Shown in pieces: positions 2,654 to 24,619 of a DNA stretch of 32,000 nt (position 1 is the stretch's first letter; the number at the start of each line of letters is the position of its first letter). The stretch comes from Candidatus Velamenicoccus archaeovorus (GTDB lineage: Bacteria > Omnitrophota > Gorgyraeia > Velamenicoccales > Velamenicoccaceae), in NCBI RefSeq assembly GCF_004102945.1, contig NZ_CP019384.1:1410001-1442000 (forward strand). The letters run 5' to 3'. A program made the position numbers and the translations under genes. The notes beneath the pieces are model-generated. The model had not been told where the DNA came from. It searched no databases and worked only from the letters and a program-made list of their open reading frames with translations.

Positions 2654-2716
2654 ACCCATTTGCAACAGAACTCAAGGGACCACGAATCGAACCCCAAGGG
2701 TTCGAATTGGTATCAA

Positions 2717-2808: not shown

Positions 2809-2810
2809 GA

Positions 2811-2835
2811 GAAATTTTCCGACAAGGAAAATTTC
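2811..2835. other. Perfect 10-bp hairpin (gaaattttcc gacaa ggaaaatttc) 2 nt from the tRNA 5' end
   Basis: Read directly. On the minus strand it sits between the transaldolase stop and the tRNA. It could be a weak terminator or a processing structure. Confidence 0.4.
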
Positions 2836-2947
2836 GAGGACACTAAAGCGAACACGACGCATAAGCGCCGCGACCCGGCAAGGGCCGCAGCGAGCGATAG
2901 CGTCTTTTTATTATATCAAAGCCGCAAAGAGCTAACGGTGCGAACAC

Positions 2948-4072
2948 TCAACCCATCTTCTTTTTCAACGTGTCCAAAAGCGACCGGAACGAATTCTCAA
3001 AAGCCTTGAGGCCTTCCACCTGCGTATCACGACAAACCGCATCAAGATTCGCACCGAATTGCGCCACCTTGGCCAGCCAAACAACCACCTCTTCCAGCTC
3101 GCTTTCCAAAGAAAGCCCCAGGCGGCCGTGATCCTCATAAGCCAAGACTGTCTGGTGCGGCATCGTGTTGACCGTCTGGGGACCAATCAGGTTATCCACA
3201 TAAAGACAATCGCTATAAGCCGGGTTCTTCGTGCTTGTGGAGGCCCACAAAGGCCTTTGGACCCGCCCCCCCCTGGTCTTGATATCTCCAAATCTGTCGT
3301 CGGAAAACAATTGCTTGAACCGCTGGTAGATCAGTTTGCAGTTTGCGATCGCAATCTTGCCTTTAAGATCCCTGATGGCGTCTTTCCTGCCGAGATCCAT
3401 CTCTCTGGCCATGATCACGTCCAAGAGACTATCCACCTTCGAGTCGATCCGACTCACAAAAACACTGGCGACGGAAGCGACGCGCGAAACATCTTCGCCC
3501 ATCCGTATCCTGTCGCGCAGGCCGTCCTGGTAAGCCTGGGCTATGAGTTCATATTGCTCCTGAGAAAAAAGAAGGGTCACATTGACGTTAATGCCCTCGG
3601 CAATAAGCGCACGGATCGCATCGGGGCTCGATGCCGTCCCGGGGACCTTGATCATGATGTTTTGCCGGCCGATCTTTTTAAAAATATGCCTGGCGTATTC
3701 GATGGTCTTGTAGGCATCGTGGGCGTATTCCGGCAGGACTTCGATGCTGACATAGCCGTCCACGCCCTGCGTCGTCTCATAGACGCCCGCCAAAAGGGCG
3801 GCGGCGTCACGGACATCATCCGTCGTCAACTCATCATAGATGGCATAAAGGTCTTTGCCGGCGTCTTTGAGGCGCCGGATCTTGTCGTCATAGATGTCGC
3901 TCGACCCGACGGCCTTTTCAAAAATCGTGGGATTAGAAGTCACACCCACGATCCCCCTGTCAATGAGGCTTTTGAGCTCACCGCCGTCGATAAGACGACG
4001 GTCGATGTTGTCATACCAAGGGCTTTGGCCCATCTGGTAAAGTTTTCTCAACTTGCCGTTTTTATATTCCAT
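2948..4072 (-). CDS. tal: Transaldolase (long form)
   Basis: MEYKNGKLRKLYQMGQSPWYDNIDRRLI...GVTSNPTIFEKA...MIKVPGT are typical transaldolase blocks. I prefer the start at MEYKNG (ATG 4072) over the ORF maximum at 4132; the start is uncertain. Confidence 0.88.
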   Translation of the reverse strand: MEYKNGKLRKLYQMGQSPWYDNIDRRLIDGGELKSLIDRGIVGVTSNPTIFEKAVGSSDIYDDKIRRLKDAGKDLYAIYDELTTDDVRDAAALLAGVYETTQGVDGYVSIEVLPEYAHDAYKTIEYARHIFKKIGRQNIMIKVPGTASSPDAIRALIAEGINVNVTLLFSQEQYELIAQAYQDGLRDRIRMGEDVSRVASVASVFVSRIDSKVDSLLDVIMAREMDLGRKDAIRDLKGKIAIANCKLIYQRFKQLFSDDRFGDIKTRGGRVQRPLWASTSTKNPAYSDCLYVDNLIGPQTVNTMPHQTVLAYEDHGRLGLSLESELEEVVVWLAKVAQFGANLDAVCRDTQVEGLKAFENSFRSLLDTLKKKMG

Positions 4073-4221
4073 GGTCGAAATAGGGGCTGCAGGACGTAGC
4101 CGCCGGAATACCTTCCTTCGCACAAGAGGCATTCTGAAAGCAGGACAAAGCGGATAGGCTTAAAAGCTATCCCATTTTACTGCTGAGGTGCGTTTTTTTG
4201 AAGTTTTTTTTCAAAAAAGAC

Positions 4222-5070
4222 TTAGAAAAATTCCTGGAGAATCTGAGTGAGCTTGGAGGGATCGGGCCCCTGGGAAAGAATGGATTTTTCAGCCATCAGG
4301 CCGCAGGCGTCCTCATAAGCCGGGCGGCCATCGCGGTAGATGACACCCACCGGAATGGCATCTCCCCACTGGAGGGCCTTTTCAAAAGCCAGGGCCTTAT
4401 TGTGAGCATCGTAATCCTGGGGTAACGGCTGGATCCTGTGTTTATACCAGGCGAAGTTATTCTTTTTATTGAAAGTCACGCACGGCTGGAGCACATCGAC
4501 GAGCGAAAACCCTTTAAAGGCAACAGCTTGCTGGATCATGGAAGACAGATGAGCCTTGTCCCCAGAAAAACTGCGCGCCACAAACCCGGCGCCCAAGGCG
4601 ATCGCCATCGCCAAAGGATGCACGGGTTCGTTGATCACGCCATGAGGCTGGACCTTTGTAACAAAACCAAGATCGCTGGTCGGCGAAGCCTGCCCTTTTG
4701 TCAAACCATAGATCTGGTTATCATGAACGATCACCGTGATATCGATATTGCGCCTGATGGCGTGGATGAAATGGTTCCCGCCTTCGCCATAGATGTCGCC
4801 GTCTCCGGAGGTCACGATGACATGGAGGTCTTTGTTCGCCAGCTTGATCCCTGTAGCGGCGGGGATGGCGCGGCCGTGCAGTCCGTTGAAAAAATTGCAA
4901 TTCAGATATTGCGGCTCCTTGGCGGCCTGACCGATACCGGAGACAAAAACCGTCTTATGCATATCGATATCCAGCTTGACCAGGGCGTCTTTTAAGGCGT
5001 CGAGAATGCCAAAGTTCCCGCATCCGGGACACCATGCTGTTTCAAAATTTCCGAGGTCTTCAGGGCGCAT
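4222..5070 (-). CDS. korB: 2-oxoacid:ferredoxin oxidoreductase, beta (TPP-binding) subunit
   Basis: N-terminal WCPGCGNFGIL and TPP-binding GDGDxxxxGGNH motifs. Its start overlaps the korA stop by 1 nt (TGATG). Confidence 0.9.
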   Translation of the reverse strand: MRPEDLGNFETAWCPGCGNFGILDALKDALVKLDIDMHKTVFVSGIGQAAKEPQYLNCNFFNGLHGRAIPAATGIKLANKDLHVIVTSGDGDIYGEGGNHFIHAIRRNIDITVIVHDNQIYGLTKGQASPTSDLGFVTKVQPHGVINEPVHPLAMAIALGAGFVARSFSGDKAHLSSMIQQAVAFKGFSLVDVLQPCVTFNKKNNFAWYKHRIQPLPQDYDAHNKALAFEKALQWGDAIPVGVIYRDGRPAYEDACGLMAEKSILSQGPDPSKLTQILQEFF

Positions 5071-7335: not shown

Positions 7336-7935
7336 CTATGACGAAGAGTGGATAACAAAAATAGCGCTCAGGGCAAAGAGGTTCGGCCAGATCCGAACCA
7401 GGCGACGGCGGCCCAGATAGTAGGTGTGGAGGATGCGGATGTTCTTTTCGTCGCAGAAATTCCTGAAATCGCTGATACTCAAGAAATGAAGATTCGGCGT
7501 GTTATACCAACGATATGGCAACGAGGGCGTCACCGGCGTCTCCCCCAGGAAGAAAAGCCGCAGCCGCGCGCCGACATACGCGAAGTTAGGAAACCCGACG
7601 ATGACGTTCTTGCCGACGCGCAGGGCCTCCTTGAGGACAAAATCGACTTTCCTGGTCTCCTGCATGCTCTGGTTCAGGATCACGTAGTCGAAAGATTTGT
7701 CGGGATATTCGATAAGACCCGAGTCGATATCGCTGTGAAAGACACTCAGCCCCTTCTCGACGCACCTGTAAATCGCCTCTTCCGAAAGCTCTATTCCCTG
7801 GACATGCGCCCCCTTCTCCTTGGCCAGGAAATAAATAAGGTCTCCCTCGCCGCACCCCAAATCCAGGACCCTCGAGCCGGGCTCCACGATCTGATAAATG
7901 ATCTTATGATCCAGACGGACGGTATTGAATGTCAT
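7336..7935 (-). CDS. metW: Methionine biosynthesis protein MetW
   Basis: [16 protein letters not shown]-MTase-like motif and typical MetW length. Overlaps the metX stop by 4 nt. Confidence 0.85.
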
Positions 7936-9068
7936 CTGACGTTGTACCCCTTATAGGTCTTGTCCAGGAAGTGCTTGATCAGATGCGTCTCTTCCTCAAT
8001 TTCAAGCAGGAACGCATCGTGGCCGTAGGTGGAATTGATCTCACAATACGTGGCGTCGGCATGCCTTCGCTTCAGCTGACGAACGATCTCCTGGGACTGG
8101 TATAAAGGATAGAGCCAGTCCGAACGAAAGGCAATCACGAGGAAACGCGTCTCGGCCCGGCGCTCGGCCGGGATCAGCGAGTCCCCCGCGACATCGAAAT
8201 AATCCATGGCCTTCGTGATGTACAAATACGAGTTGGCATCAAAACGTTTGACAAAGTTATCCCCGCGATACCGCAGATATCCTTCCACCTCAAAATCCGT
8301 CTTGAACTGGAAGCTGTAATCCTTCTCTTTGAGACGACGGGAAAATTTTTCCTCCATGGACTTATCGCTCATATACGTGATGTGACCGATCATACGGGCC
8401 ACAGCCAGCCCTCTCTCCGGCTGTCCGTGGCCGTAATAGTCGCCCTCCCGCCATTCAGGGTCTGCCATGACGGCCTGCCGGCCGACCTCGTCGAAGGCGA
8501 TCTGTTGCGGCGAATGCTTCAGGGCCGTCGCTATCGGAATGGCACATCGCACGCGTTCAGGGTAGGAAGCGACCCATTGAAGCACCTGCATACCTCCCAT
8601 GGAACCGCCGCAGACACAAAGAAGCCTGCCAATGCCAAGGTGATCAATCAAATACCGCTGGGCATTCACCATGTCGCCGATGGTAATAACGGGAAAATCA
8701 AGACCGTAAGGCTTGCCTGCGGCCGGGTTGATCGAGGACGGCCCCGTGGACCCTTTGCAGCCGCCGATGACATTGGAACAGATCACGAAATATTTGTCCG
8801 TGTCAAAGGCCTTGCCGGGACCGATCATGGCATCCCACCATCCCGGATCCTCGTCTCCGGGATGGAACCCGGCCGCATGGGCGTCGCCCGACAATGCATG
8901 GCAGATCAGGACCGCGTTGCTTTTGTCGGCATCGAGCCTGCCGTAAGTCTCATAGGCCAACGTGATGGGCCCAAGCTTCTGACCGCCTTCGAGCAAAAGC
9001 TCGTGCGGCGATTCGGCAAAAGTCGCATATCGAGTCTCAACGTTCCCTAAGCTCTTCTTCTTATCCAT
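7932..9068 (-). CDS. metX: Homoserine O-acetyltransferase
   Basis: Alpha/beta hydrolase with GGSMGGMQ nucleophile elbow. The N-terminal [20 protein letters not shown] and [14 protein letters not shown] blocks are typical of MetX. Confidence 0.9.
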
Positions 9069-9085
9069 CCTTTGTCTTTCTGCTC

Positions 9086-10012
9086 TTATTCATGGAACAA
9101 CCACGTCGACAAATATCTTTCGCCCGTATCAGGCAGGATCACGACGATCGTCTTGCCTCTCGATTCTTTTCTCCTGGCAACCTCCAATGCCGCCCACATG
9201 GCGGCACCGCTGGATATCCCGACAAAAATCCCCTCTTCTTTTGCCAGGCGGCGGGCCACAACGCCGGCCTCCTCATGGGAGACTGTCATGACCTCATCAA
9301 TAATCTCCTTGTCCAACACCTGCGGGACAAACCCGGCGCCGATCCCCTGGATCTTGTGCGCCCCTGGTTTTCCGCCGGAAAGGACAGGCGAATCCTTAGG
9401 CTCCAATCCTATGACTTTAACAGATGGTTTTCTTTTTTTCAAGACCTCGCCGACGCCCGTGACCGTACCCCCCGTGCCGATGCCGGCAATGAACACATCG
9501 ACTTGCCCGTCCGTATCGTTCCATATCTCTTCTGCCGTCGTGCGGCGATGGATCTCGGGGTTCGCCGGATTATTGAACTGCTGCGGCATAAAACTGTCGG
9601 TTAGCGTGCGGGCCAACTCTTCGGCCTTTTCTATGGCGCCCTTCATGCCCTTTGCGCCGTCAGTCAATACGAGTTCTGCGCCAAGGATCTTGAGCATCTG
9701 CCGGCGTTCGATACTCATCGTATCCGGCATGGTCAAGATAAGCCGGTATCCTTTGGCTGCCGCTACAAAAGCCAGGGCGATCCCTGTGTTGCCGCTCGTC
9801 GGCTCGACGATAACAGAACCTTTCTTCAGCTTGCCTGCTTTCTCTGCGGCCTCGATCATGGCGCAGCCGATCCTGTCCTTGACGCTGGAAAGGGGATTAA
9901 AAGATTCTACTTTCGCCAGGATCGCGGCTTCAAGGCCGGCGCCCAGTTTATTGATGCGGACCAGCGGCGTGTGGCCGATAGTCTTGGTGATATCATCGTA
10001 TATTCTAGACAT
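9086..10012 (-). CDS. cysK: Cysteine synthase A (O-acetylserine sulfhydrylase)
   Basis: [20 protein letters not shown] (PLP lysine) and TSGNTG motifs. Start chosen at MSRIYDD (ATG 10012), preceded by an AGGGGG RBS. Confidence 0.9.
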
Positions 10013-10110
10013 AAATGCCCCCTGCTTCAGAGAACAGAGGACAGAACACAGGGAACAGACAAAAAAATCTGTACTCTGTCCTCCGTTTTCTGTGCTCTTC
10101 AATTTATTTT

Positions 10111-11478
<1,368 letters not shown>

Positions 11479-12865: not shown

Positions 12866-13306
12866 CTAAATCGCATACTCAAGCGCCCGGCGGCGGACGT
12901 CAACCCTTGACGCCAGATCTTCAAAAGTCACATGATCGATAATGCCGGACGTGGCTTGTGCGACATCCTGCCAAATATTTCTAAAAACACACCGATACAC
13001 ATCCAGGCACGCCGTGTATTCATGCCGAACGCAGGCAATAGGTTCTACAGGGCCTTCTATGAATCGGACGACATCCCCGACCGTGATCTTGTCCGGGGCC
13101 TTCGCCAATAAAAACCCTCCCACCTTACCTCGCCGGCTTTCCACAAAACCGCCTTTTTTTAAATCCATCAAGACCTGTTCTAAAAATTTGACAGGGGCGT
13201 CAATGCGTCCGGCCATCTCATGGATCGTCACCAGCTCTTCTCCATAATGAATAGCCAGATCTAAAACAGCTTTAAGCGCATAGTCTCCTCGATACGTAAT
13301 CTTCAT
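12866..13306 (-). CDS. Rrf2-family transcriptional regulator (probable Fe-S cluster type)
   Basis: N-terminal wHTH (YALKAVLDLA...TIHEMAGRIDAPVKFLEQVLMDLKKGGFVESRRGKVGGF). Three Cys at positions 92/100/106, spaced as in IscR/NsrR-type cluster ligands. Confidence 0.88.
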   Translation of the reverse strand: MKITYRGDYALKAVLDLAIHYGEELVTIHEMAGRIDAPVKFLEQVLMDLKKGGFVESRRGKVGGFLLAKAPDKITVGDVVRFIEGPVEPIACVRHEYTACLDVYRCVFRNIWQDVAQATSGIIDHVTFEDLASRVDVRRRALEYAI

Positions 13307-13410: not shown

Positions 13411-14100
13411 CTACTCCCGCGCTCCTTCTTCTCCCTTGAGTTTCTCGTGATGATGCTTGACGACCTTGGCCTCAACCATATAGATGACATCCTCTGCGAT
13501 ATTGGTGGCGTGATCGCAAATGCGTTCAAGATAGCGGGCGATCAAGAGGAGCGGAACGGCCCGCGTGGCGCTCTTCGGGTCTTTAGCCATATAATCGTTG
13601 ATCAGCTTGTTCTGGATCAAATCCCTAAGCTTGTCCGCTTCGGTGTCCGATAAACAAACCTGGCGGGCCAAGGCGACGTCCTTGTTGATGTAGGCGTCGA
13701 TGACATCCTTGATCATCTTCTGGGCGACAGCGGAAAGCTTGGGGATATCGATAAGGGGTTTAAGCAAGGGCTGGCCAACCAGCTCCACCACCCTCTGCGC
13801 GATATCCACGGCCAGGTCGGCGATACGCTCCAGGTCGGCATTGACCTTGAGGGCCGTCATCAGAAAACGCAGATCTGAAGCAACAGGCTGGTGCAGGGCG
13901 ATCATGTTAAAAACATCGTCATCGATGCTGTTCTCAAGAAAATCAATCTGGGCATCGTCCGTGATCACCTTCCCGGCCAGCTCAGCGTTACGCTCTTTTA
14001 AGGCGTCGATGGATTTATGGATCGACTCTTGCGTCAAAAGCGCCATCTTCAGGATCTTCTGGTTCAAGGCCTTGAGCTCTTCATCAAAGAATCTCTGCAT
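13411..14100 (-). CDS. phoU: Phosphate signalling complex protein PhoU (operon 1)
   Basis: MQRFFDEELKALNQKIL... and two PhoU repeats (DDAQIDFLENSIDDD; SDTEADKLRDLI; ERICDHATNIAEDVIY). Confidence 0.9.
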   Translation of the reverse strand: MQRFFDEELKALNQKILKMALLTQESIHKSIDALKERNAELAGKVITDDAQIDFLENSIDDDVFNMIALHQPVASDLRFLMTALKVNADLERIADLAVDIAQRVVELVGQPLLKPLIDIPKLSAVAQKMIKDVIDAYINKDVALARQVCLSDTEADKLRDLIQNKLINDYMAKDPKSATRAVPLLLIARYLERICDHATNIAEDVIYMVEAKVVKHHHEKLKGEEGARE

Positions 14101-14198: not shown

Positions 14199-14954
14199 TT
14201 ATCCGTATCTGCCCGTAATGTATTCTTCAGTCTTCTTGTCCTGCGGACGGTTAAAGACGTCTCCTGTCTTGCCGAATTCGACCAGCCTGCCCAAAAGCAT
14301 GAAACCCACGTCATCGGAAATGCGGGCCGCCTGCTGCATGTTATGCGTCACGATGACGATCGTATAATCCTTCTTCAACTCGCGCGCCGTCTCCTCGATC
14401 TTGAGGGTCGCGATCGGGTCCAGAGCCGAGCACGGCTCATCCATGAGGATGATGTCCGGCTTGACGGCCAGGGTACGCGCGATGCAGAGGCGCTGCTTCT
14501 CTTCCAATGACAAAGAAAGGGCACTGGCATAAAGCCTGTCCTTGAGCTTATCCCACAAGAGGACGGCCTTGAGCGACTCTTCCACAAGGCCGCCAAGCTC
14601 ATCCCTGCTTGTGATCATATGATGGACCTTCAGGCCATAGACAAGATTCTCGTATATCGTCAGGGGAAACGGGTTCGGCCGCTGAAAGACCATGCCGACT
14701 TTTTTACGCAGACCCACAAGGTCTATGCCGGGCCCGAGGATGTTCTCGCTGCCGACGAGGATCTCGCCGGTCATCGCAACCCCTTCGATGAGGTCGTTCA
14801 TCCGGTTGAAGGTGCGCAGGAGCGTCGACTTTCCGCAGCCCGAGGGACCGATGATAGCCGTGATCCCTTTTTCCTTGATCGCGATGTTGACATCGATCAA
14901 GGCGTGGAACTTGTCGTAAAACAGGTTGAGGTTCTTCGTTTCGATGATCGGCAT
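14199..14954 (-). CDS. pstB: Phosphate ABC transporter ATP-binding protein with degenerate ABC signature (LSLEEKQR in place of LSGGQQQR)
   Basis: Walker [11 protein letters not shown]-loop [12 protein letters not shown], Walker [13 protein letters not shown] and H-loop [10 protein letters not shown] are canonical. Signature confirmed on the DNA as tca ttg gaa gag aag cag cgc. Confidence 0.9.
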   Translation of the reverse strand: MPIIETKNLNLFYDKFHALIDVNIAIKEKGITAIIGPSGCGKSTLLRTFNRMNDLIEGVAMTGEILVGSENILGPGIDLVGLRKKVGMVFQRPNPFPLTIYENLVYGLKVHHMITSRDELGGLVEESLKAVLLWDKLKDRLYASALSLSLEEKQRLCIARTLAVKPDIILMDEPCSALDPIATLKIEETARELKKDYTIVIVTHNMQQAARISDDVGFMLLGRLVEFGKTGDVFNRPQDKKTEEYITGRYG

Positions 14955-14955
14955 A

Positions 14956-15714
14956 TTATCCGAATTTTCCGACGATATAATCTTCCGTCCTCTTGTCCTT
15001 CGGCGACGTGAAAATCCTGTCGGTCACATCCTCTTCGATCAGGTCGCCCATCAGGAAGAACGCGACGCGGTCCGAAACGCGCGCCGCCTGTTTTGTGTTG
15101 TTCGTCACGAGGACAATCGTATACTTCTTTTTAAGGACCACCATGGATTCCTCGACTTTGGCGGTTGAGATCGGGTCCAGGCCTGAGCAGGGTTCGTCGA
15201 AAAGGATGACGTCCGGCTTGACAGCCAGGGTGCGCGCGATGCAAAGGCGCTGCTGCTGGCCGCCGGACAGCTTCGTGGCTGCAGACTTGAGACGATCTTT
15301 GACCTCCTCCCACAAAAAGGCGCTCCTCAAGCTCTCTTCGACGGCCGCGTCCAGCCGCCTCTTGTCGTTGATCCCCTGCCTGCGGGGCCCAAAAGCGATA
15401 TTCTCATAGATCGAAAGCGGCAGAGGCATGGGCAGCGCGAAGATCATTCCCACCCGGCGCCTGAGTCCTTCGGGTTTAAAATCCTTATTGATATCCCTGC
15501 CTTCCAGGAGGATAGACCCGCTCATCCTATAATTATCCTGCGTCTCATTGAGCCTGTTGAGGGCACGCAAAAATGTCGTCTTGCCGCTATTGGCGGGGCC
15601 GATGGCGCCAAGGATCCCGTTTCTGGCGATATCACAACTCACGCGATGCAGGGCGTGGACCGCCCCAAAGCGGATATCCAGATCCCTGACGGAAAAACAA
15701 ACGTTATGTTCCAT
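14956..15714 (-). CDS. pstB: PstB-like ATP-binding protein with degenerate Walker A, Q-loop and H-loop but an intact signature
   Basis: GPANSGKTT (Walker A), VGMIFALPMPLP (Q-loop Gln to Ala), VTNNTKQAAR (H-loop His to Asn). [13 protein letters not shown] and [11 protein letters not shown] are retained. Start at MEHNV (ATG 15714). Its stop is 1 nt from the next pstB start. Confidence 0.85.
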   Translation of the reverse strand: MEHNVCFSVRDLDIRFGAVHALHRVSCDIARNGILGAIGPANSGKTTFLRALNRLNETQDNYRMSGSILLEGRDINKDFKPEGLRRRVGMIFALPMPLPLSIYENIAFGPRRQGINDKRRLDAAVEESLRSAFLWEEVKDRLKSAATKLSGGQQQRLCIARTLAVKPDVILFDEPCSGLDPISTAKVEESMVVLKKKYTIVLVTNNTKQAARVSDRVAFFLMGDLIEEDVTDRIFTSPKDKRTEDYIVGKFG

Positions 15715-15780: not shown

Positions 15781-16644
15781 TCACCATTTATATTTTCTCC
15801 TGAATTTGGAGCGGATAATGATGGCCACAAGATTCATCAACAACACCATGAGGATCAGGACAAGCGCCGTGCCGTAGCGGTAGCTGTTGGGGATATTCGG
15901 GATCTGCGTCGCGATAATATAGAGGTGATACGGCAAGGCCATGGCCTGGTCGAAAACGGAATGCGGCAAATGGGGAATATAGAACGCCGCGACCGTAAAA
16001 AGAATAGGTGCAGTCTCTCCTGCGGCCCGGGCAATGCTTAAAATGGTCCCCGTCAGGATGCCCGGCAGGGCGAACGGTAAAACAGCATGACGCACGGTCT
16101 GCCAGCGGCTGGCGCCCAGAGACAGGCCGACCTCGCGGAAATAATCCGGCACGGCCTTGAGGGATTCCCGCGTCGAAGTGATAATGACCGGCAGGTTCAT
16201 GATGGCCAATGTCAGAGAGCCTGCCACGATGGAGGCGCCGAACTTCAAAAAGACGACGAACAGACTGAAGCCGAAAAGCCCATAGACGACGGACGGCACG
16301 CCCGAAAGGTTGACGATGGCGAGATTGATCAACCTCGTCAGGGCGTTTTCCTTTGCGTATTCGCTCAAGTAAATCGCCGCCAGGATCCCCAGGGGCAGAG
16401 AACAGACCGTGGCGCCCACCACGAGATAAAGCGTGCCGACGATCGCCGGAAAAATACCCCCTGCGCGCATCCCCTCTTTAGGCATGGCCGTCAGGAATTC
16501 CCAGTTGATCGCTGAGATCCCGTTCTTGAAAATAATCCACAGGACGACGACAACAGGCGCCAGGATGAAAAGCGTAATGAAGAACAGGGCGCCAAAGGCA
16601 ATCTTTTCCTTCGCTGCAACACTGATCAGGTTATTCCATCTCAT
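15781..16644 (-). CDS. pstA: Phosphate ABC transporter permease PstA (operon 1)
   Basis: MRWNNLISVAAKEK... TM protein with the EAA-type loop (SLGASRWQTVRHAVLP). Its ATG overlaps the pstC stop (ATGA). The listed 446-aa ORF N-terminus is an out-of-frame extension over pstC. Confidence 0.9.
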   Translation of the reverse strand: MRWNNLISVAAKEKIAFGALFFITLFILAPVVVVLWIIFKNGISAINWEFLTAMPKEGMRAGGIFPAIVGTLYLVVGATVCSLPLGILAAIYLSEYAKENALTRLINLAIVNLSGVPSVVYGLFGFSLFVVFLKFGASIVAGSLTLAIMNLPVIITSTRESLKAVPDYFREVGLSLGASRWQTVRHAVLPFALPGILTGTILSIARAAGETAPILFTVAAFYIPHLPHSVFDQAMALPYHLYIIATQIPNIPNSYRYGTALVLILMVLLMNLVAIIIRSKFRRKYKW

Positions 16645-17510
16645 TTCGTCCTCACGCGGTGCAGGAAGAAATCGGCCGTGATATTGATCATAAAGGTAAT
16701 GAGGAACAGGATAATGCCGATGGAAAACAGGGCGTGGTAATGGGCGCTGCCGTGAACGACCTCCCCCATTTCGGCGGCGATCGTCGCCGTCAGCGTCCGG
16801 ACCGGCTGCAGGAACGTCCGCGGGATGACGGCGGCATTGCCCGTGATCATCATGACCGCCATCGTCTCGCCAATCACCCGACCCACGCCCAGCATGCAGG
16901 CCGCGATGATGCCGGGCTTGGCCGCGTGGATCGTGACGCGGTACATCGTCTGCCATCGCGTCGCGCCCAGGGCGATGGACCCTTCCTTGTATTGCCGGGG
17001 AACGGCGGTGATCGCATCCTCGGAGATACTGATAATGGTCGGCATAGCCATGAACCCCAGCATGATGGAACCCGCCAGGGCCGTCAGCCCCGTCGGGACA
17101 TGAAAGATGGCCTTGATCCACGGCACCAGCGTGATCATGCCGACGAAACCGAGGACGACGCTGGGAATAGAAGCAAGGATCTCGATGCCGGTCTTCAAGA
17201 AATCCCGTATGCGCGCCGGCGCGATCTCCGCAACATAAAAGGCCGCGCCGATACTCAACGGAACGGCGAAAAGAACAGCCCCCAAGGTAACGAAGAGGGA
17301 ACCAAGGATCAATGGCAGGATGCCGAAGCGCGGAGGCTCAGAGATAGGATACCAGTATTTTCCCAAAAGGAAGGCCGAAAGCTTGACGTCCTTAAAAAAG
17401 GACAAGCCCTCCTTCAGCAGAAAAACGAAGATCAGACAAACAAAGAGAATGACGAGAATGCCGCTCAAAAAGACAAGCTTCTCTATGATGAATTCCTTGA
17501 ATCGTCTCAT
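16641..17510 (-). CDS. pstC: Phosphate ABC transporter permease PstC (operon 1)
   Basis: Typical PstC blocks (YWYPISEPPRFGILPLILGS; ALGATRWQTMYRV). Start at MRRFKEF (ATG 17510), preceded by an AGGAAGG RBS. Confidence 0.9.
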   Translation of the reverse strand: MRRFKEFIIEKLVFLSGILVILFVCLIFVFLLKEGLSFFKDVKLSAFLLGKYWYPISEPPRFGILPLILGSLFVTLGAVLFAVPLSIGAAFYVAEIAPARIRDFLKTGIEILASIPSVVLGFVGMITLVPWIKAIFHVPTGLTALAGSIMLGFMAMPTIISISEDAITAVPRQYKEGSIALGATRWQTMYRVTIHAAKPGIIAACMLGVGRVIGETMAVMMITGNAAVIPRTFLQPVRTLTATIAAEMGEVVHGSAHYHALFSIGIILFLITFMINITADFFLHRVRTK

Positions 17511-17596
17511 GCCTTCCTGACCGATGATACGTTCGCGGCCGCAAAACCGCACCCTTCAGGATATGAATAGAGGATAGCCGCTCAGTATTTCACTCC

Positions 17597-17623
17597 AAAG
17601 AAACCGCGGGTTTCAACCCGCGG
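17597..17623 (-). terminator. Intra-operon hairpin plus U-tract just after the pstS stop (attenuator/terminator)
   Basis: The minus strand reads ccgcgggt-tgaa-acccgcgg (8 GC-rich bp) followed by tttcttt. It starts 4 nt after the pstS TGA. Confidence 0.6.
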
Positions 17624-17627
17624 AGCT

Positions 17628-18485
17628 TCATTTTACAGGGATAAAATCGAGCTTCACCACGATCGCCTGACCTTCGGGAGAAAGGACAAAATCAAGGAAA
17701 GCCTTGATAATCCCCTTCGGTTCCCCGCAGGTGTACATCAGGAGCGGCCGCGAGATCGGATAGGACCCGGACTTGACGGTTGCCATCGTGGGCTCGACGT
17801 ACGCAGAAGACGCGTCCTTGGAAATAGCCAGCGCTTTTTGCTGAGCGGTCACATAACCGATGCCGTAATAGCCGATGGCGTTGACGTTCTGGGCCACCTC
17901 GTCGGCGATCGCCTGGGACGAAGGCAAAAGGAGCGCCGACGGCGAAAACTCGTTGAAATCCTTCTCGCGGCTCAGGACGTGTTCCTTAATATATATGTGC
18001 GTGCCGGAATTGACCTCGCGCGACAGAATGACGATAGGCATGTTGGGGCCGCCCACGTCTTTCCAGTTGGTGATCTTGCCGGTAAAGATGTCGGCCAGTT
18101 GGTCTAAAGTCAGCTTGGAGACGGGGTTTTCGGGATTGACCACGATCGCCACGCCGTCCAAGGCCACTGTCAGCTCAACGGGCTCCACGCCCTTCTCTTC
18201 CAGGAGCGCCTTTTCCTTATCCTCGATGTTCCGGGAGGCCTCGGCAATATCGCAGGTCCCGCCAATCAATGCCGCAAAACCTGTTCCCGACCCACCGCCT
18301 GTCACAGCCACGCTGACCGCCGGATGTTCCTTACTGAACGTCTCAGCCCAAGCCTGGCCGAGGTTCACCATGGTATCCGACCCTTTGATCTGGATCGAAC
18401 CGGAGAGCTCTTCCCCATGCGCAGCCAAACACAGAAAGCCGGTTGACAATATCAGGACAAAAGAAAAAATGATCTTTTTGAACAT
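17628..18485 (-). CDS. pstS: Phosphate-binding protein PstS, short type (operon 1)
   Basis: Signal peptide, then IQIKGSDTM...VTGGGSGTGFAALIGGTCDIAEASR...NWKDVGG, typical of the short PstS family of periplasmic phosphate binders. GGAGG RBS. Confidence 0.85.
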   Translation of the reverse strand: MFKKIIFSFVLILSTGFLCLAAHGEELSGSIQIKGSDTMVNLGQAWAETFSKEHPAVSVAVTGGGSGTGFAALIGGTCDIAEASRNIEDKEKALLEEKGVEPVELTVALDGVAIVVNPENPVSKLTLDQLADIFTGKITNWKDVGGPNMPIVILSREVNSGTHIYIKEHVLSREKDFNEFSPSALLLPSSQAIADEVAQNVNAIGYYGIGYVTAQQKALAISKDASSAYVEPTMATVKSGSYPISRPLLMYTCGEPKGIIKAFLDFVLSPEGQAIVVKLDFIPVK

Positions 18486-18510
18486 GATTCCTCCATTTTA
18501 AACAACCCTT

Positions 18511-18538
18511 AGTGTATCAGATATTCTTTCGTTTTCAA
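18511..18538 (-). promoter_or_regulatory. Candidate promoter for pst operon 1 (TTGAAA-16 nt-TACACT)
   Basis: -35 at 18538-18533 and -10 at 18516-18511, about 25 nt upstream of the pstS ATG. Pattern match only. Confidence 0.3.
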
Positions 18539-18610
18539 GAAGGATTCTGGAAGAAAGCAAAGACAGGGGCCAGTCCGGATGTCCGGAGCCTGTTGATGAG
18601 GAAAATCGCT

Positions 18611-18634
18611 AAAATCTGAGCCCCGCGGGCTCAG
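18611..18634 (-). terminator. Intrinsic terminator after phoU of operon 2
   Basis: The minus strand reads ctgagccc-gcg-gggctcag (8 bp) followed by atttta. A second hairpin, cctgccc-gctt-gggcagg, lies just upstream at 18640-18657. Confidence 0.6.
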
Positions 18635-18675
18635 CCTCGCCTGCCCAAGCGGGCAGGGAATTCTGGCAAACGGGA

Positions 18676-19341
18676 TTAAAATGTTCGGGGACGGTGTTTG
18701 ACGACCTTGGCAGAAACCATATAGATGACATCTTCGGCGATGTTGGTGGCATGATCACAGATACGTTCCAGGTGGCGTGCGACCAACAATAACGGCAAGG
18801 CGCGGCTGACGCAGGAAACGTCTTTCTCCATAAAATCACGGATCAACTCTGTCTGGACAAGGTTACGCAGCTGATCGGCCTCGCTGTCTTTCAGGATCAC
18901 TTTTTTCGCCTGCTCCGTATCTTCCTTGAGAAAAGCCTCAAGGGCATCCCTGATCATCTGCTGGGCGAGCAAAGACAGCCTGGGGATATCGTGCAAAGGT
19001 TTCAACAAAGGCCGACCCGCCAGTTCGATGACCCGCTGGGCAATATCAACGGCCAGGTCCGCCATCCGCTCCAAGTCTGTCGTGATCTTCATGACCATGG
19101 CGACAAACCGCAGGTCGACGGCCAACGGCTGCATGAGGGCCAGGAGCCGCAGGGTCTTCTCGTCGAGGGTCAGCTCCATCTCATCGATCCGCCTGTCCTC
19201 GAGTATGATTTGGTGCGCCTCCTCCGCATCAAGGTTTTTTAACGCCTCTTGCGCCCTGTCGACGGCCTGTTCCACCATCGTCCCCATGATCAGGATTTCC
19301 TGTTTCAGCTCCGCCAATTCTTCGTCAAAATGCCTCTCCAT
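18676..19341 (-). CDS. phoU: Phosphate signalling complex protein PhoU (operon 2)
   Basis: MERHFDEELAELKQEIL... and ERICDHATNIAEDVIY. Start at ATG 19341, preceded by an AGGGAGAG RBS. Confidence 0.9.
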   Translation of the reverse strand: MERHFDEELAELKQEILIMGTMVEQAVDRAQEALKNLDAEEAHQIILEDRRIDEMELTLDEKTLRLLALMQPLAVDLRFVAMVMKITTDLERMADLAVDIAQRVIELAGRPLLKPLHDIPRLSLLAQQMIRDALEAFLKEDTEQAKKVILKDSEADQLRNLVQTELIRDFMEKDVSCVSRALPLLLVARHLERICDHATNIAEDVIYMVSAKVVKHRPRTF

Positions 19342-19385
19342 GTGTCTCTCCCTCTGGGATTGATGATAATAAATCAAGCTGGTCA

Positions 19386-20144
19386 TCAACCAAATCTCCC
19401 CGTAATGTAATCCTCGGTCCTTTTATCTGCCGGCGCTTCAAACATCATCTCCGTCCTGTCGAATTCTATCAGTTCCCCCAGGAGGAAAAATGCCGCGCGA
19501 TCCGACACCCGGGCCGCCTGCTGCATGTTATGCGTCACGATGATGATCGTATAATCCTGCTTAAGCCTGAATATCAGCTCCTCGATCTTCCCTGTCGAAA
19601 TAGGGTCCAAGGCGGAACAAGGCTCGTCGAAAAGGATGATCTCCGGCTTAACGGCCAGGGCCCTGGCAATACAAAGGCGCTGCTGCTGGCCCCCGGAAAG
19701 GCTGACCCCCGAAGCGCCAAGCTTATCCTTGACCTCATCCCACAAAGCGGCCATCTTCAGGGATTCTTCGACAATCCCGTCAAGCTGACCCCTCTTTCTG
19801 ACCCCGTTAAGCTTCAGGCCTGCAGCGACATTGTCATAGATGGAAAGCACGGGGAATGGATTGGGCCGCTGGAATACCATACCGACCCTGTGTCTGATCT
19901 CGATGGGATCGACATCGGGTGCATAGATGTTTTTACCGTCCAGAAAGACCTCTCCCGACAGCCGTGCGCTCGGCACGACCTCATGCAGCCTGTTGATGCA
20001 GCGAATGAATGTCGACTTCCCGCAGCCCGAGGGACCGATGATAGCCGTCACTTGCTTCTGTTCTATGGCTATATTTATACCTTTTAAGACGTGGATGTGC
20101 CCGAAATAGGCGTTCAGATCAATGACATTGACTTGTTCGTTCAT
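19386..20144 (-). CDS. pstB: Phosphate ABC transporter ATP-binding protein PstB (fully canonical)
   Basis: [45 protein letters not shown] and [10 protein letters not shown] are all present. Confidence 0.95.
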
Positions 20145-20153
20145 GGGCTATCC

Positions 20154-21002
20154 TTATTTGAAGGATCTGTAGCGCAGATAAATCACGATCCTGCTGACGA
20201 TGCTGATCAAGAATACCATGGCGATCAACACGAGGGCGCCGGCCCAGGCCTGCCTGTGCCAATCGTCAAACGGAGAGATGGCGTAGACGAATATTTGCAA
20301 CGGCAGGGCCGCCATAGGCTGATCAAGGCCCTGATGCCAGAACCTATTGCCGAAGGCCGTGAACAACAGCGGCGCCGTCTCTCCGGCGATGCGCGCGATG
20401 GCCAATAAAATCCCCGTCAGGACCCCGGGCAGGGCGGTCTTGAGAACGATATTCATGGTCGTGCGGAACTGGTTGATCCCGAGGGCGAACGCGGCCTCGC
20501 GCAGCGTCGCCGGCACAAGCCGCAGCATCTCTTCAGTCGTACGCATGACCGTGGGGATCATGATGATCCCAAGGGCAAAACCGCCGCTGACCGCCGAAAA
20601 ACTCTTCATGGGAACGACGAACAGCGTATAAGCAAAGATCCCGATAACGATAGACGGTACACCGTTCAAAACATCCGTCGTGAACCGGACCGCAGCCCCC
20701 AGCTTTGAATTGCCGAACTCGGACAGATAGACCCCGCCCGCGATCCCCAGCGGGATGGCCCAAAGACAGGAAAGTCCGACCAGAATAAGGCTGCCGACGA
20801 TCGCGTTCCCCATGCCGCCGCCGGGTTCTCCGACGGGTTTCGGCAAATGCGTAAAGAAATCGAAATTGACGCTCGCGATCCCTTTGGAGACGACATAGCC
20901 GAAGATGCTGATGAGGGGCGCGAGCGTCAAAAAAGCGCAGAGAAAAACGACGGCACACATGAGCGCATTGACGACCTTCCTTCTTCTATAAACAGCCTTC
21001 AT
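20154..21002 (-). CDS. pstA: Phosphate ABC transporter permease PstA (operon 2)
   Basis: PstA-type TM protein (ALGINQFRTTMNIVL). Start at MKAVYRRRK; its ATG overlaps the pstC stop (ATGA at 21002-20999). Confidence 0.9.
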   Translation of the reverse strand: MKAVYRRRKVVNALMCAVVFLCAFLTLAPLISIFGYVVSKGIASVNFDFFTHLPKPVGEPGGGMGNAIVGSLILVGLSCLWAIPLGIAGGVYLSEFGNSKLGAAVRFTTDVLNGVPSIVIGIFAYTLFVVPMKSFSAVSGGFALGIIMIPTVMRTTEEMLRLVPATLREAAFALGINQFRTTMNIVLKTALPGVLTGILLAIARIAGETAPLLFTAFGNRFWHQGLDQPMAALPLQIFVYAISPFDDWHRQAWAGALVLIAMVFLISIVSRIVIYLRYRSFK

Positions 21003-21925
21003 GCCCCCCTCCCTCTTCCAGCCTTGCCTGATACCTTCCATATCAAGGCCTGCGCCGCGATATTGAGGATCAGCGTGACAAAAAACAGGATAAGCCCGAT
21101 TTCGATGAGGGCCGAAAGATAGAGGTCGCTGGTGGCCTCGGTGAACTCATTGGCGATCACCGACGCCATGGTGTAGGCGGGCGCAAACAGGGAAGCGGCG
21201 ATCTGGGGCCTGTTACCGATGACCATCGTAACGGCCATGGTCTCACCCAGCGCCCGTCCCAGCCCGAGCATGATGGCGCCCAACACCCCTGAACGGGCAG
21301 ACCCCAAGACGCCCAAACGGATGGTCTCCCACGGCGTCGCCCCTAATCCTAAAGCCGCCTCCCGCTGGGCGAATGGCACGGCCAAAAATACCTCCCGTGA
21401 CACGGAAGAAATCGTAGGAATAATCATGATGCTCAAGATGATGCCCGCCGTCAGCATGCCGACGCCGTAAAAGGCCCCCTGGAAAAGCGGCAAAAACCCT
21501 AAATGGCGAGACAAAAACGGCTGGATGGCATATCTCAAGAACGGCGCCAGAACAAAGATACCCCACAATCCATAGACGACGCTGGGAATGGCGGCCAGCA
21601 ATTCGATAAGAAAACTCAACGGCTGCCGGATCCAGAAAGGCGCCAGTTCCGCCAGATAGATCGCGATGCCCAGTGAGACAGGAACAGCAATCGCGAGGGC
21701 CAGGATCGACGAGACGATCGTCCCGTAGATGAACGGCAGCGCCCCAAAGACCTCTTTGACCGGATCCCAGGTGCTTGTCGACAAAAAACGCCAGCCGAAT
21801 TTCTGGATGGACGGCATGGCGTTTACCACCATGCTGCAAGCCAAAAGGAAGGTCAAGGCGACCACGGACAAGGCTAGCACCGTGGCCGCCCTTCTAAACC
21901 CCCTATCGGCTAACGTCAACTTCAT
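20999..21925 (-). CDS. pstC: Phosphate ABC transporter permease PstC (operon 2)
   Basis: PSIQKFGWRFLSTSTWDPV and GLGATPWETIRLGVL are typical PstC blocks. Confidence 0.9.
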   Translation of the reverse strand: MKLTLADRGFRRAATVLALSVVALTFLLACSMVVNAMPSIQKFGWRFLSTSTWDPVKEVFGALPFIYGTIVSSILALAIAVPVSLGIAIYLAELAPFWIRQPLSFLIELLAAIPSVVYGLWGIFVLAPFLRYAIQPFLSRHLGFLPLFQGAFYGVGMLTAGIILSIMIIPTISSVSREVFLAVPFAQREAALGLGATPWETIRLGVLGSARSGVLGAIMLGLGRALGETMAVTMVIGNRPQIAASLFAPAYTMASVIANEFTEATSDLYLSALIEIGLILFFVTLILNIAAQALIWKVSGKAGRGRGA

Positions 21926-21941
21926 GGGCGATGCGTCTCGG

Positions 21942-22973
21942 CTAATAAGTTATCTCGCCGAGCCTCTTCTCGATCTTCTTGACCATGCTCTGAGGCAAAG
22001 GGGCGTACAGAAGGTCTGCCGCATACCTTTGGCCGTCCGAAACGGCCCAGTACAGGAATTTCACGATCTTTTCGCCCCTGACCTTGTCAGGCTGATGCTT
22101 ATAAACCAGGATCCAGGTCACGCCGGCGATCGGATAGGCATCCGCCCCGTCGGGATTCACCAACGAAACCCTGAAATCGGACGGCATGGAATCGATCTTG
22201 CCGTTGACGGCTGCAGTCGTGCTTTCGATGCTCGGCGTCACAAAATTCCCCGATTTGTTCCTGACATCCGCATACGGCAGGCCGTTTTTGACCGCATAGG
22301 CAAGTTCCACATAGCCGATCGCCCCCTCTGTCTGCTTCACCAGGCCCGCCACTCCCTCATTGCCCTTACCGCCTAAACCCACCGGCCAATTCACGGAAGT
22401 GCCCTTACCGACCTCGGACTTCCAGACAGCAGATACAGAAGAAAGATAATCCGTGAAGATATTTGTCGTCCCGCTGCCATCCGAACGATGCGCCACAATG
22501 ATATTTTCAGCGGGCAGGTCAACCCCCGGGTTGTCCTGGGCGATCCGGGGATCATTCCACCGGGAGATCTTGCCGAGGAAAATATCGGCGATCACATCCG
22601 GGCTGAATTTTAAGTTTTGGCTGACCTGCGGCAGATTGTAGGTGATAACAACGGCCCCCGCCGTCATCGGGATATGCAACAGTTCTCCCGGAGCCGTCTT
22701 TAACTGTTCGTCGGTCAAGGCCCCGTCGGAGGCGCCGAAATCCACCGTCTGGGCCGTGATCTGTTTTATGCCGCCGCCGGAACCGATGGACTGATAGTTA
22801 AAATTCACGGTCGGGTCGACCTTGGTGTATTCATAGAACCACTTTGAATAGAGCGGATAAGGAAAAGTCGCCCCCGCCCCGTTGATCAAAAGCAGTTTTC
22901 CTGCGAGGGCCGCCCCTGCCGCAAGGCTCAGGGCCAGGATCCCCGTCATGCATCCTAAAAGTATCCTTTTCAT
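21942..22973 (-). CDS. pstS: Phosphate-binding protein PstS, long E. coli-like type (operon 2)
   Basis: Signal peptide, then INGAGATFPYPLYSKWFYEY...YQSIGSGGGIKQI...FGASD. Start at MKRILLG (ATG 22973), preceded by an AAGGAGAG RBS. Confidence 0.9.
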   Translation of the reverse strand: MKRILLGCMTGILALSLAAGAALAGKLLLINGAGATFPYPLYSKWFYEYTKVDPTVNFNYQSIGSGGGIKQITAQTVDFGASDGALTDEQLKTAPGELLHIPMTAGAVVITYNLPQVSQNLKFSPDVIADIFLGKISRWNDPRIAQDNPGVDLPAENIIVAHRSDGSGTTNIFTDYLSSVSAVWKSEVGKGTSVNWPVGLGGKGNEGVAGLVKQTEGAIGYVELAYAVKNGLPYADVRNKSGNFVTPSIESTTAAVNGKIDSMPSDFRVSLVNPDGADAYPIAGVTWILVYKHQPDKVRGEKIVKFLYWAVSDGQRYAADLLYAPLPQSMVKKIEKRLGEITY

Positions 22974-23009
22974 ATCAACAGCTCTCCTTTGCTTGTTAAA
23001 CACATATCC

Positions 23010-24299
23010 TTAGAATTTCATGTTCCAATCGACCTGGACAAGGGTCTCGGGATTCTTGGGATCCGATATGCTCCACGAACGATAGATATCGACGCCGAGG
23101 AACGTATTCTTGCCCAACCCGTAGGTGAATTCGCATTCATGGCTTCTCATGTTTGTCGCCCCGCCGTAACGGTCCGAATCCGGCAACACGTCGAGCACCG
23201 CATCCTTGCCCAGCATGGCATAGATATACTTGATCTGCCAATCGCCCCATTTGGAGACCTTGTCGTGGCCCAGCTTGAAACCCACGGCAAAACCGCTCGA
23301 CCCCTTGGATACGTCGAGATTATTGACGTATTCGCCGAAGAATTTCACCATCTCGATCTTGGAACCGACGGCGCTGAACGGTTCTTTGATCGTCAACTCC
23401 ACGGCCGGACTGAACATCTGATAGTCATAGATGTAACTCGAGGCCCCTTTTGTCGTATTGCCCGTGTTGCTGGCCGAAGAATACTTGCTGGAGGTATGCC
23501 CTTTGACATTATCAAAAGATTGATAAGATACGCTCCCCTTCAATGACATGTCTTTGTTAAATTTATAGGTAGCCCCTGCCTGGGCGAGATAGGCCATGGG
23601 CGAGTCGGCGTCCGAGCTGGTGTCGGCATCCACGATCAACACCCCTGTGTTCAAGAATGCCGAAGCGCGGGATCCCAACTTCTTGTTAAGGCTAAAAACC
23701 CCTCCCTCGGGCGTTATGTCCGTATCCCAGATCAGGTCGGTCGGCTCCCAGAGCGCATCGCCCAAGAGCATCTTGCCGCCGACGGCAGTAAACCAGTCCG
23801 ACGGGCTGTATTTGCCATAGGCGTAATCAAGGACGACGGTCTTTTTCTCATTGTAGCCGCCCAGCGTGATATTCGTAGAGCGGGGATCCCCCGAACCGCT
23901 TGCGATCCCCACGCCTGCCATCAGCTTATCATTGACCTTGGCGTCCAATCCCAGGCGCAGACGGATGCGTCCGATGTGGGTGTCTTTTGCCGCATCATTC
24001 GTCGCTTTTTCATGCTTATACTGGTACCTGAGCCGGAAATCACCTTTCAATTTTATGTTCTTGACCCAATCGGGCATGCTGCCTTTGGCTATTTCCTTAT
24101 AATCCTCCTGTTTCTGTTTTTCCGTTTTGGCTATCTCTTCGTTCGTCTCCGTCCTTATCTCCTGCGCCTCCGAGGCGTTTAAAACGCCTTTCTCCACCAA
24201 TTTCTGGAGCAAGACATCCACCTCGCCGGCCCATGCCGCGCGGAAAGACGACAACCCCAGCAGCATGCTCGCTAAAAATACAAATACCGTTTTCCTCAT
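23010..24299 (-). CDS. Putative outer-membrane porin with N-terminal coiled-coil segment (phosphate-regulated by context)
   Basis: Signal peptide MRKTVFVFLASMLLGLSSFRAAWA, a charged helical stretch, then strand-like repeats and a C-terminal ...VDWNMKF. Start at ATG 24299, preceded by an AAGGAGGAAAG RBS. It sits 36 nt upstream of pstS. Confidence 0.65.
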   Translation of the reverse strand: MRKTVFVFLASMLLGLSSFRAAWAGEVDVLLQKLVEKGVLNASEAQEIRTETNEEIAKTEKQKQEDYKEIAKGSMPDWVKNIKLKGDFRLRYQYKHEKATNDAAKDTHIGRIRLRLGLDAKVNDKLMAGVGIASGSGDPRSTNITLGGYNEKKTVVLDYAYGKYSPSDWFTAVGGKMLLGDALWEPTDLIWDTDITPEGGVFSLNKKLGSRASAFLNTGVLIVDADTSSDADSPMAYLAQAGATYKFNKDMSLKGSVSYQSFDNVKGHTSSKYSSASNTGNTTKGASSYIYDYQMFSPAVELTIKEPFSAVGSKIEMVKFFGEYVNNLDVSKGSSGFAVGFKLGHDKVSKWGDWQIKYIYAMLGKDAVLDVLPDSDRYGGATNMRSHECEFTYGLGKNTFLGVDIYRSWSISDPKNPETLVQVDWNMKF

Positions 24300-24427
24300 C
24301 TTTCCTCCTTTTCCCCGCCGTGCGGGCCCTGTCCCGCTCAGGCAGGCGTTGTTGAATGGATCCCGTTGGTCTTTTTTTTGTTCGCTCCTGCCCGCCGTGG
24401 GCGGGCGGAAAAGTCTGGCAAAGGGGA

Positions 24428-24619
24428 TCAATTTTCTTTCCATATCTTGCGGACCTGCCGAAGGCTCGCCTCTACCTTCTTTAAATTATCTTCCGCCCAA
24501 CTATCGCTGATCATGTGATCCTGTTCCACCTGATCAAGAAGGCTTCCCAAGACACGGATCTGCGCCCTCAAATGGCTTGCAATGAAATCGGAGCGGATGT
24601 TCGACATCTTCTGAAACAT
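24428..24619 (-). CDS. Hypothetical 63-aa soluble helical protein, first ORF after the Pho-box-like promoter
   Basis: MFQKMSNIRSDFIASHLRAQIRVLGSLLDQVEQDHMISDSWAEDNLKKVEASLRQVRKIWKEN. Strong GGGAGGA RBS 4 nt upstream of the ATG at 24619. No family recognised. Confidence 0.45.
   Translation of the reverse strand: MFQKMSNIRSDFIASHLRAQIRVLGSLLDQVEQDHMISDSWAEDNLKKVEASLRQVRKIWKEN

Follow-up and report, generated by a model that had tools for sequence, protein, structure and literature searches.

Adjacent PstB paralogues with complementary motif changes predict a phosphate importer with one consensus and one degenerate ATP site

A stretch of 32,000 nucleotides from Candidatus Velamenicoccus archaeovorus (contig NZ_CP019384.1, positions 1,410,001 to 1,442,000; hereafter the window) contains two complete pst-phoU operons, which encode phosphate importers of the ATP-binding cassette (ABC) type. 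The operons lie head to tail on the minus strand, operon 2 upstream and operon 1 downstream, and their phosphate-binding proteins affiliate to different families, TIGR00975 (upstream) versus TIGR02136 (downstream). The single PstB ATPase of operon 2 is canonical at every motif. Operon 1 encodes two adjacent PstB-type proteins, PstB1 (B1) and PstB2 (B2), in two open reading frames (ORFs) that are separated by a stop codon and 1 nt (junction TAA-T-ATG; coordinates in Table 1). The pstB1 start at position 15714 was favoured over the alternatives because it is preceded by a Shine-Dalgarno-like run (GGTGGGGG) and because the homologues are 250-255 amino acids (aa) long.

The three PstB proteins of the window were aligned with the canonical copy (19386-20144) as the reference, and the motifs were also read at codon level. 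None of the changes described here for B1 and B2 occurs in the reference. PstB1 has lost the Gln of the Q-loop and the His of the H-loop, whereas its signature (LSGGQQQR) is intact and the A-loop Phe16, the Walker A Lys45 and the Walker B Asp173-Glu174 are retained; its D-loop reads SGLD. The Walker A motif of PstB1 deviates at three positions but still fits GxxxxGK[ST], with Lys and Thr invariant among B1 sequences, and is on this reading deviant rather than broken. PstB2 is the complement: Walker A, Q-loop, Walker B and H-loop (VTHNMQQ) are all canonical, and the signature reads LSLEEKQR. The family trait of a complete catalytic ABC motif set in each subunit is thus absent from both proteins, B1 being without the Q-loop Gln and the H-loop His and B2 without the signature Gly-Gly. 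A preliminary description of this DNA had reported the tandem genes 1 nt apart at these positions, the replaced Gln and His of PstB1 beside an intact signature, and the LSLEEKQR of an otherwise canonical PstB2; the junction, the alignment and the codons (14513-14490 for the PstB2 signature) agree with it throughout. It had also counted GPANSGKTT among the lesions of PstB1, where the sequence is right but the motif is not a broken one, and its list of PstB1 changes, correct in what it named, missed two that are fixed: SALD to SGLD in the D-loop and Gln to Lys three positions after the H-loop His.

All three proteins match best the PstB equivalog model TIGR00972 (cut-off 343.2 bits), the canonical copy with 389.9 bits, B2 with 359.1 and B1 with 334.2. 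B1 falls just below the cut-off, yet TIGR00972 is by far its best match. Because B1-type proteins fall just short of this threshold, database relatives of B1 bear the generic name 'phosphate ABC transporter ATP-binding protein', while named relatives of B2 are mostly called PstB. An AlphaFold2 model of the B1 monomer reached a mean predicted local distance difference test (pLDDT) value of 90.8 and superposed on E. coli PstB (9k3x) with template modelling (TM) scores of 0.93-0.96 and a root-mean-square deviation of 1.2 Å; the best matches in the PDB were 9k3x and 9k3s (overall TM 0.90-0.96). Since the confident model superposes on E. coli PstB, B1 is predicted to be a complete, folded nucleotide-binding domain with the PstB fold.

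The motif changes are fixed among homologues. After sequences more than 95% identical were dropped, the non-redundant set comprised 76 canonical, 69 B1 and 72 B2 proteins. In the canonical group, Gln, His and Gly-Gly occupy the Q-loop, H-loop and signature columns without exception. In B1, the Q-loop residue is Ala (67) or Ser (2) and the H-loop residue is Asn in 69/69, while the Gly..Gly-Lys of Walker A, the Asp-Glu of Walker B and LSGGQ are each kept in 69/69 and an aromatic A-loop residue (Phe or Tyr) in 63/69. The D-loop change to SGLD (68/69) and the change of Gln to Lys at H-loop position +3 (60/69) complete the B1 pattern. In B2, the second signature Gly is replaced by Glu in 60 sequences and by Asp in 12, the first is mostly Leu, and all else is canonical. 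Both sets of lesions are fixed in homologues down to about 40% identity. The same holds closer to the window, among the best 120 database homologues of each copy (65-97% identical): the B1-like proteins have Q-loop Ala and H-loop Asn in 120/120 and LSGGQQQR in 119/120, and the B2-like proteins are acidic at the second signature Gly in 120/120, their remaining motifs being canonical or close to it. The H-loop Asn is also present in 120/120 proteins of a second B1 clade, which comes from Kiritimatiellia, Verrucomicrobiota and Lentisphaerae. The pattern lies far beyond chance, since residues that are conserved to 100% in canonical PstB are altered, and fixed, in all B1 and B2 orthologues. By eye, the per-locus motif tables showed no covariation of Walker A position 4 or Lys208 of B1 with the signature variants of B2. 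In 9 of 120 B1 homologues from the Planctomycetota-Verrucomicrobiota-Chlamydiota (PVC) clade the Gly before the Walker A Lys is replaced as well (GPSGSAKTT or GPAGSAKTT); judged by these motifs, the predicted degenerate site has drifted further in some PVC lineages.

The two proteins are also inherited together. Every PstB-type ORF in 160 loci, 80 from genomes (B1 as query) and 80 from metagenomes (B2 as query), was classed by alignment to the canonical copy. A B1-type gene with downstream DNA was directly followed by a B2-type gene in 74/74 cases, and a B2-type gene directly preceded by a B1-type gene in 74/74; the four apparent orphans are all cut by a contig end. This is the co-occurrence of B1 changes and B2 Gly-Gly loss that the preliminary description had proposed as a test in syntenic pairs. 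The same loci hold 87 canonical pstB genes standing alone and two canonical-canonical tandem pairs, both from Shouchella (loci L066 and L074). The order pstS-pstC-pstA-B1-B2(-phoU) is invariant across related loci, the PstS before every pair being of the TIGR02136 type and phoU following most pairs. In seven loci (L001, L004, L011, L016, L022, L023 and L042) a canonical pst operon lies directly upstream of the operon with the pair, as in the window. Co-translation of both subunits in equal amounts would fit the abutting genes, only 1 nt apart.

Within 70 pairs, B1 and its own B2 share 42-58% identity. Mean p-distances in 70 genome pairs are nearly equal (0.377 for B1 and 0.356 for B2, ratio 1.06). 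In a neighbor-joining tree calculated with the motif columns removed and with the tandem Firmicutes copies counted as canonical PstB, all B2 sequences formed one clan (bootstrap 0.52) and all B1 sequences, together with two odd ones, another (0.67). Because each partner forms a single clan, a single old origin of each is suggested. B1 and B2 were not sister groups (bootstrap 0.005), and their origin in one recent, simple tandem duplication is therefore unsupported.

In the record taxon labels, the pair occurs in Omnitrophota, Planctomycetia including Candidatus Kuenenia stuttgartiensis (L048), Phycisphaerae, Kiritimatiellia, Lentisphaerae, Verrucomicrobiota, Hydrogenedentota, Aminicenantes, Auribacterota and Ignavibacteriae, as well as in some metagenome-assembled genomes (MAGs) of Deltaproteobacteria and Clostridia. 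The genome record closest to the window is a MAG labelled Planctomycetia (L001, 97% amino-acid identity). Among the named matches of a cluster look-up and of a homology search with a Kiritimatiellia B1, there were only MAGs and no cultured isolates. In a plasmid collection, B1 and B2 types were not found; its matches were canonical PstB only, all below 60% identity.

In the head-to-tail dimer of ABC proteins, each ATP site has its Walker A, Walker B, Q-loop and H-loop from one subunit and its signature from the partner (PMC7756269), and the ATP-bound structure of E. coli PstSCAB shows the same sandwich geometry for PstB (PMC12976172). Mapped on this geometry, the positions fixed differently from canonical PstB sit almost only in the motifs of one composite site, the D-loop Ala to Gly change of B1 being the sole class-specific change outside it; the other site is canonical, as the preliminary description had proposed. 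In a B2 homodimer both signatures would be defective, and in a B1 homodimer both sites would be without Gln and His. Since only the heterodimer yields a complete site, and since adjacency is strict, an obligate heterodimer is the best reading. From this motif logic we infer an importer with one active site: operon 1 most probably encodes a PstS-PstC-PstA system driven by an obligate PstB1-PstB2 heterodimer with one consensus hydrolytic and one degenerate site.

In such a heterodimer, site 1 would be formed by Walker A, Walker B, Gln91 and His204 of PstB2 with the LSGGQ of PstB1, and would be fully canonical and hydrolytic. Site 2 would be formed by Walker A, Walker B, Ala93 and Asn205 of PstB1 with the LSLEE of PstB2. 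This degenerate site would be without the catalytic and gamma-phosphate-sensing residues, would have an acidic side chain in place of the signature Gly that normally touches the gamma-phosphate, and would keep the nucleotide-binding residues (A-loop aromatic, Walker A Lys-Thr, Walker B Asp). The position of the second signature Gly is also that of the CFTR gating mutation G551D. Because B1 keeps the residues that bind nucleotide and loses those that sense or attack the gamma-phosphate, site 2 is expected to bind ATP without hydrolysis, or to hydrolyze it very slowly. One ATP would then be hydrolyzed per turnover, at site 1, and site 2 would retain its nucleotide and serve as a hinge, structural or allosteric, in the manner of degenerate-site exporters (PMC7756269). 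It may be speculated that the acidic signature residue of B2 pairs with Lys208 or Asn205 of B1 and so latches the dimer.

Some observations weigh against a heterodimer with a single hydrolytic site. The Walker B catalytic Glu of B1 is retained in 69/69 sequences, so residual hydrolysis at site 2 is possible, while classical degenerate sites usually lose this residue (PMC7756269, PMC3971661). In nucleotide-binding domain 2 (NBD2) of MRP1, replacement of the H-loop His by Asn or Gln left transport wild-type-like (PMC7756269). Bootstrap support for the monophyly of B1 and of B2 is moderate only. The first two points, with the likewise invariant Walker A Lys and Walker B Asp of B1, would suit a heterodimer whose two sites both work but are not equivalent, the changes tuning the kinetics of site 2 and two ATP being spent per cycle. 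We regard this as unlikely, given the joint alteration of three independent contacts for the gamma-phosphate or for catalysis, namely Q-loop Gln, H-loop His and second signature Gly. Canonical PstB conserves all three at 100%, B2 has an acidic residue for the signature Gly in 72/72 sequences, and Pdr5 shows the same combination at its non-hydrolytic site (PMC7756269).

Nor are the other explanations favored by the genomic pattern. PstB1 could be mainly a regulator or sensor whose pocket reads the ATP/ADP ratio or couples to PhoU and the signalling of the Pho regulon, rather than serving the energetics of transport. PhoU is said to interact with PstB in E. coli, going by the title of Gardner et al. 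2014, each operon of the window has its own phoU, and one metagenomic locus (L161) has a third, still more degenerate PstB-like gene at the usual phoU position. The present data contain no signalling link, however, and B1 keeps the whole PstB fold and always stands in a transporter operon at a 1:1 gene dosage with B2. As an explanation in its own right a sensor role is decidedly improbable, though it would be compatible with the degenerate-site heterodimer and not exclusive of it. Separate homodimers on different complexes, for example B2 on the operon 1 importer and B1 elsewhere, find a parallel in E. faecalis, whose tandem PstB paralogues are non-equivalent and where excess PstB2 can replace PstB1 (PMC12096839). 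The E. faecalis pair is fully canonical, however, whereas each homodimer would here have two defective sites, and the 74/74 reciprocal adjacency points to a joint unit; the chance that this arrangement applies appears very slight. Decay of one or both copies into redundant paralogues without a joint function would account for the presence of non-consensus motifs and for nothing beyond it. Against it stand identical residues fixed in all orthologues from several phyla, a rate of evolution of B1 as low as that of B2, intact reading frames, a confident structural model and strict co-occurrence. Three findings, namely fixed lesions, retention of the residues that bind nucleotide and equal rates in B1 and B2, rule out random decay, which merits next to no credence; the preliminary description had likewise held the pattern to be non-random.

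The degenerate-site heterodimer predicted for operon 1 resembles the heterodimeric ABC exporters TM287/288, TAP1/2, BmrCD, MRP1 and CFTR (PMC7756269, PMC3971661). These also have two different nucleotide-binding domains, with deviations confined to one composite site (one subunit's Walker side and its partner's signature), with the residues for nucleotide binding retained and with an asymmetry that is conserved in orthologues. In contrast to B1 and B2, which are free ATPases of a type I, binding-protein-dependent importer, those exporters fuse the nucleotide-binding to the membrane domain. The preliminary description had called the pattern the hallmark of such exporters, which is apt for the conserved one-site asymmetry and not for the catalytic Glu: unlike TM287/288, TAP and CFTR, the B1/B2 pair retains it at the degenerate site, and its own hallmarks are Ala for the Q-loop Gln, Asn for the H-loop His and Glu or Asp for the signature Gly. 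Closer in its signature is the degenerate site of yeast Pdr5/Cdr1, where LNVEQ (compare LSLEQ/LSLEE) is acidic at the second Gly and the H-loop His is replaced by Tyr (PMC7756269). Pdr5 differs in that the Walker A Lys and the Walker B Glu are lost too and in being a full-size eukaryotic exporter of the ABCG/PDR type; by this comparison, the resemblance to the B2 signature is considered convergent.

Among importers, E. coli PstSCAB (9k3s, 9k3x and 9k3y) has the same operon components and PstB fold but contains two identical PstB subunits and two consensus ATP sites (PMC12976172). Two adjacent pstB genes after pstA are also found in Firmicutes, namely B. subtilis PstBA/PstBB, E. faecalis PstB1/PstB2 (PMC12096839) and the two Shouchella loci. 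Unlike in the window, both copies are canonical in E. faecalis and Shouchella, in keeping with the view of the preliminary description that tandem PstB proteins of the Bacillus type are two ordinary ATPases. The 2025 study of E. faecalis, where both copies have identical canonical motifs, is the only experimental work on tandem pstB; by its own account, such paralogues had not been studied before (PMC12096839). The sugar and nucleoside importers RbsA and NupO have a built-in degenerate ATP site like that predicted for B1/B2. They differ, however, in having both nucleotide-binding domains in one polypeptide, in the loss of the second Walker A Lys and in family and substrates (PMC11466899). Degenerate sites are frequent in exporters (PMC3971661); in the open-access literature, we found them reported for importers only in these fused-domain proteins (PMC11466899). 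No description of degenerate PstB pairs was found in the same literature, which supports their novelty but does not prove it.

Degenerate-site ABC systems as such are already known. The B1/B2 pair marks a Pst importer variant, conserved and widespread, with an ATPase module for which one consensus and one degenerate site are predicted. The ATP spent per cycle of an ABC importer and the purpose of its second site are long-standing questions. Textbook importer schemes assume two consensus sites (e.g. PMC7034087), and degenerate sites are regarded as an exporter feature (PMC3971661, PMC7756269). The hosts belong mostly to anaerobic, energy-limited lineages (Omnitrophota, anammox Planctomycetota, Kiritimatiellia, Aminicenantes and Hydrogenedentota); if the prediction holds, the ATP cost of phosphate uptake may be halved in such organisms, or the ATPase dimer may be permanently latched. 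Where one cell has both a one-site importer and its two-site paralogue, each for phosphate, ATP/phosphate stoichiometry, kinetics and regulation could be compared directly, and such a comparison within one genome would be notable to specialists of ABC transporters. Tentatively, with a little less than even confidence, we suggest that these are natural, ancient and widespread type I ABC importers running on a single catalytic ATP site, and the first degenerate-site heterodimer of free ATPase subunits in a binding-protein-dependent importer.

Further PstB-like proteins depart from the canonical motifs in other ways. In a search of a representative library with B1, 9 of the top 150 cluster representatives were B1-type and 4 were B2-type, and further odd variants also appeared; these counts do not give the size of the family, as all PstB proteins score highly. 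Eight library proteins (P0257, P0302, P0311, P0324, P0331, P0353, P0358 and P0367) are PstB-like with partly degenerate motifs, among them the signature LS[LIV]GQQQR, Walker A Lys to Met and H-loop variants. In locus L161 (Logan SRR9674389_1869, 2465-4765), three consecutive PstB-type genes follow pstS-pstC-pstA. In order, they are a B1-type gene with an intact LSGGQ, Pro for the Q-loop Gln and Asn in the H-loop; a B2-type gene with the signature LQLEQQQK; and a heavily degenerate copy that has Arg for the Walker A Lys, LNRGLQYR as its signature, Ala in the Q-loop and Asn in the H-loop. The third gene is not followed by phoU; the next called gene has GMP-synthase Pfam domains. A milder and non-adjacent variant occurs in a Deltaproteobacteria MAG (JBBITW010000070; L037, 2656-6759), where the PstB encoded before pstS has the signature LTLGQQQR and the one encoded after pstA has Asp in the Q-loop, SGLD in the D-loop and VPHN with its His retained. 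This second protein groups with the B1 clan in the neighbor-joining tree, and the arrangement may represent an intermediate or alternative form of asymmetry. In a Chloroflexia MAG (L078, 6031-6744), a single PstB with Q-loop Ser (FSRP) and APHN in the H-loop region follows pstSCA, and a second pstB was not found within the locus. By their motifs, asymmetric PstB paralogues seem to have arisen in several forms.

The features of both operons are listed in Table 1. Operon 1 probably has its own transcription start and the two operons are probably separate transcription units, because the spacer between phoU2 and pstS1 contains a promoter-like site and a hairpin resembling a terminator. Directly 3' of pstS1, at 17604-17623, there is another hairpin, strong and GC-rich (CCGCGGGTTGAAACCCGCGG, then a T-run). 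This hairpin and the elements of the spacer are possible points of differential expression, of pstS and of both operons.

Table 1 Features of the two pst-phoU operons in the window and motif changes of PstB1 and PstB2
Feature	Position	Strand	Remarks
pstS1, phosphate-binding protein, operon 1	17628..18485	-	NCBIfam TIGR02136, 269 bits (cut-off 206.6)
pstC1, permease	16641..17552	-	TIGR02138, 296.7 bits
pstA1, permease	15781..16644	-	287 aa; TIGR00974, 296.3 bits; ATG overlaps the pstC1 stop codon
pstB1	14956..15714	-	252 aa; putative degenerate-site donor; TIGR00972, 334.2 bits
pstB1 Walker A, GPANSGKTT	15574..15600	-	residues 39-47; positions 3-5 deviant; Gly, Lys and Thr kept
pstB1 Q-loop, FALPMPLP	15418..15441	-	Gln to Ala93, Phe to Leu98
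pstB1 H-loop, VTNNTKQ	15088..15108	-	His to Asn205, Gln to Lys208
pstB2	14199..14954	-	251 aa; proposed catalytic subunit; TIGR00972, 359.1 bits
pstB2 signature, LSLEEKQR	14490..14513	-	Gly-Gly to Leu150-Glu151; codons ttg tca ttg gaa gag aag cag cgc (14513-14490)
phoU1	13411..14100	-	TIGR02135, 206.6 bits
phoU2-pstS1 intergenic region	18486..18675	-	190 nt; terminator-like hairpin followed by a T-run; promoter-like site at 18538-18511 (consensus matches only)
Operon 2, canonical pst system for comparison	18676..23003	-	
pstS2	21942-23003	-	TIGR00975
pstC2	20999-21925	-	operon 2
pstA2	20154-21041	-	operon 2
pstB of operon 2	19386-20144	-	all motifs canonical; TIGR00972, 389.9 bits
phoU2	18676-19389	-	operon 2

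Directly upstream of pstS2 lies an ORF of 477 aa (23010-24443, minus strand) without an NCBIfam match. Judged by its position and sequence character, its product is suspected to be an outer-membrane porin. Homologues of this ORF adjoin pstS genes in loci L002, L010, L017, L018 and L021. Just downstream of phoU1, a gene on the minus strand (12866-13306) encodes a CymR/IscR-like regulator of the Rrf2 family (TIGR00738). It neighbors genes of cysteine and methionine biosynthesis (7932-11469) and is probably unrelated to the pst genes.

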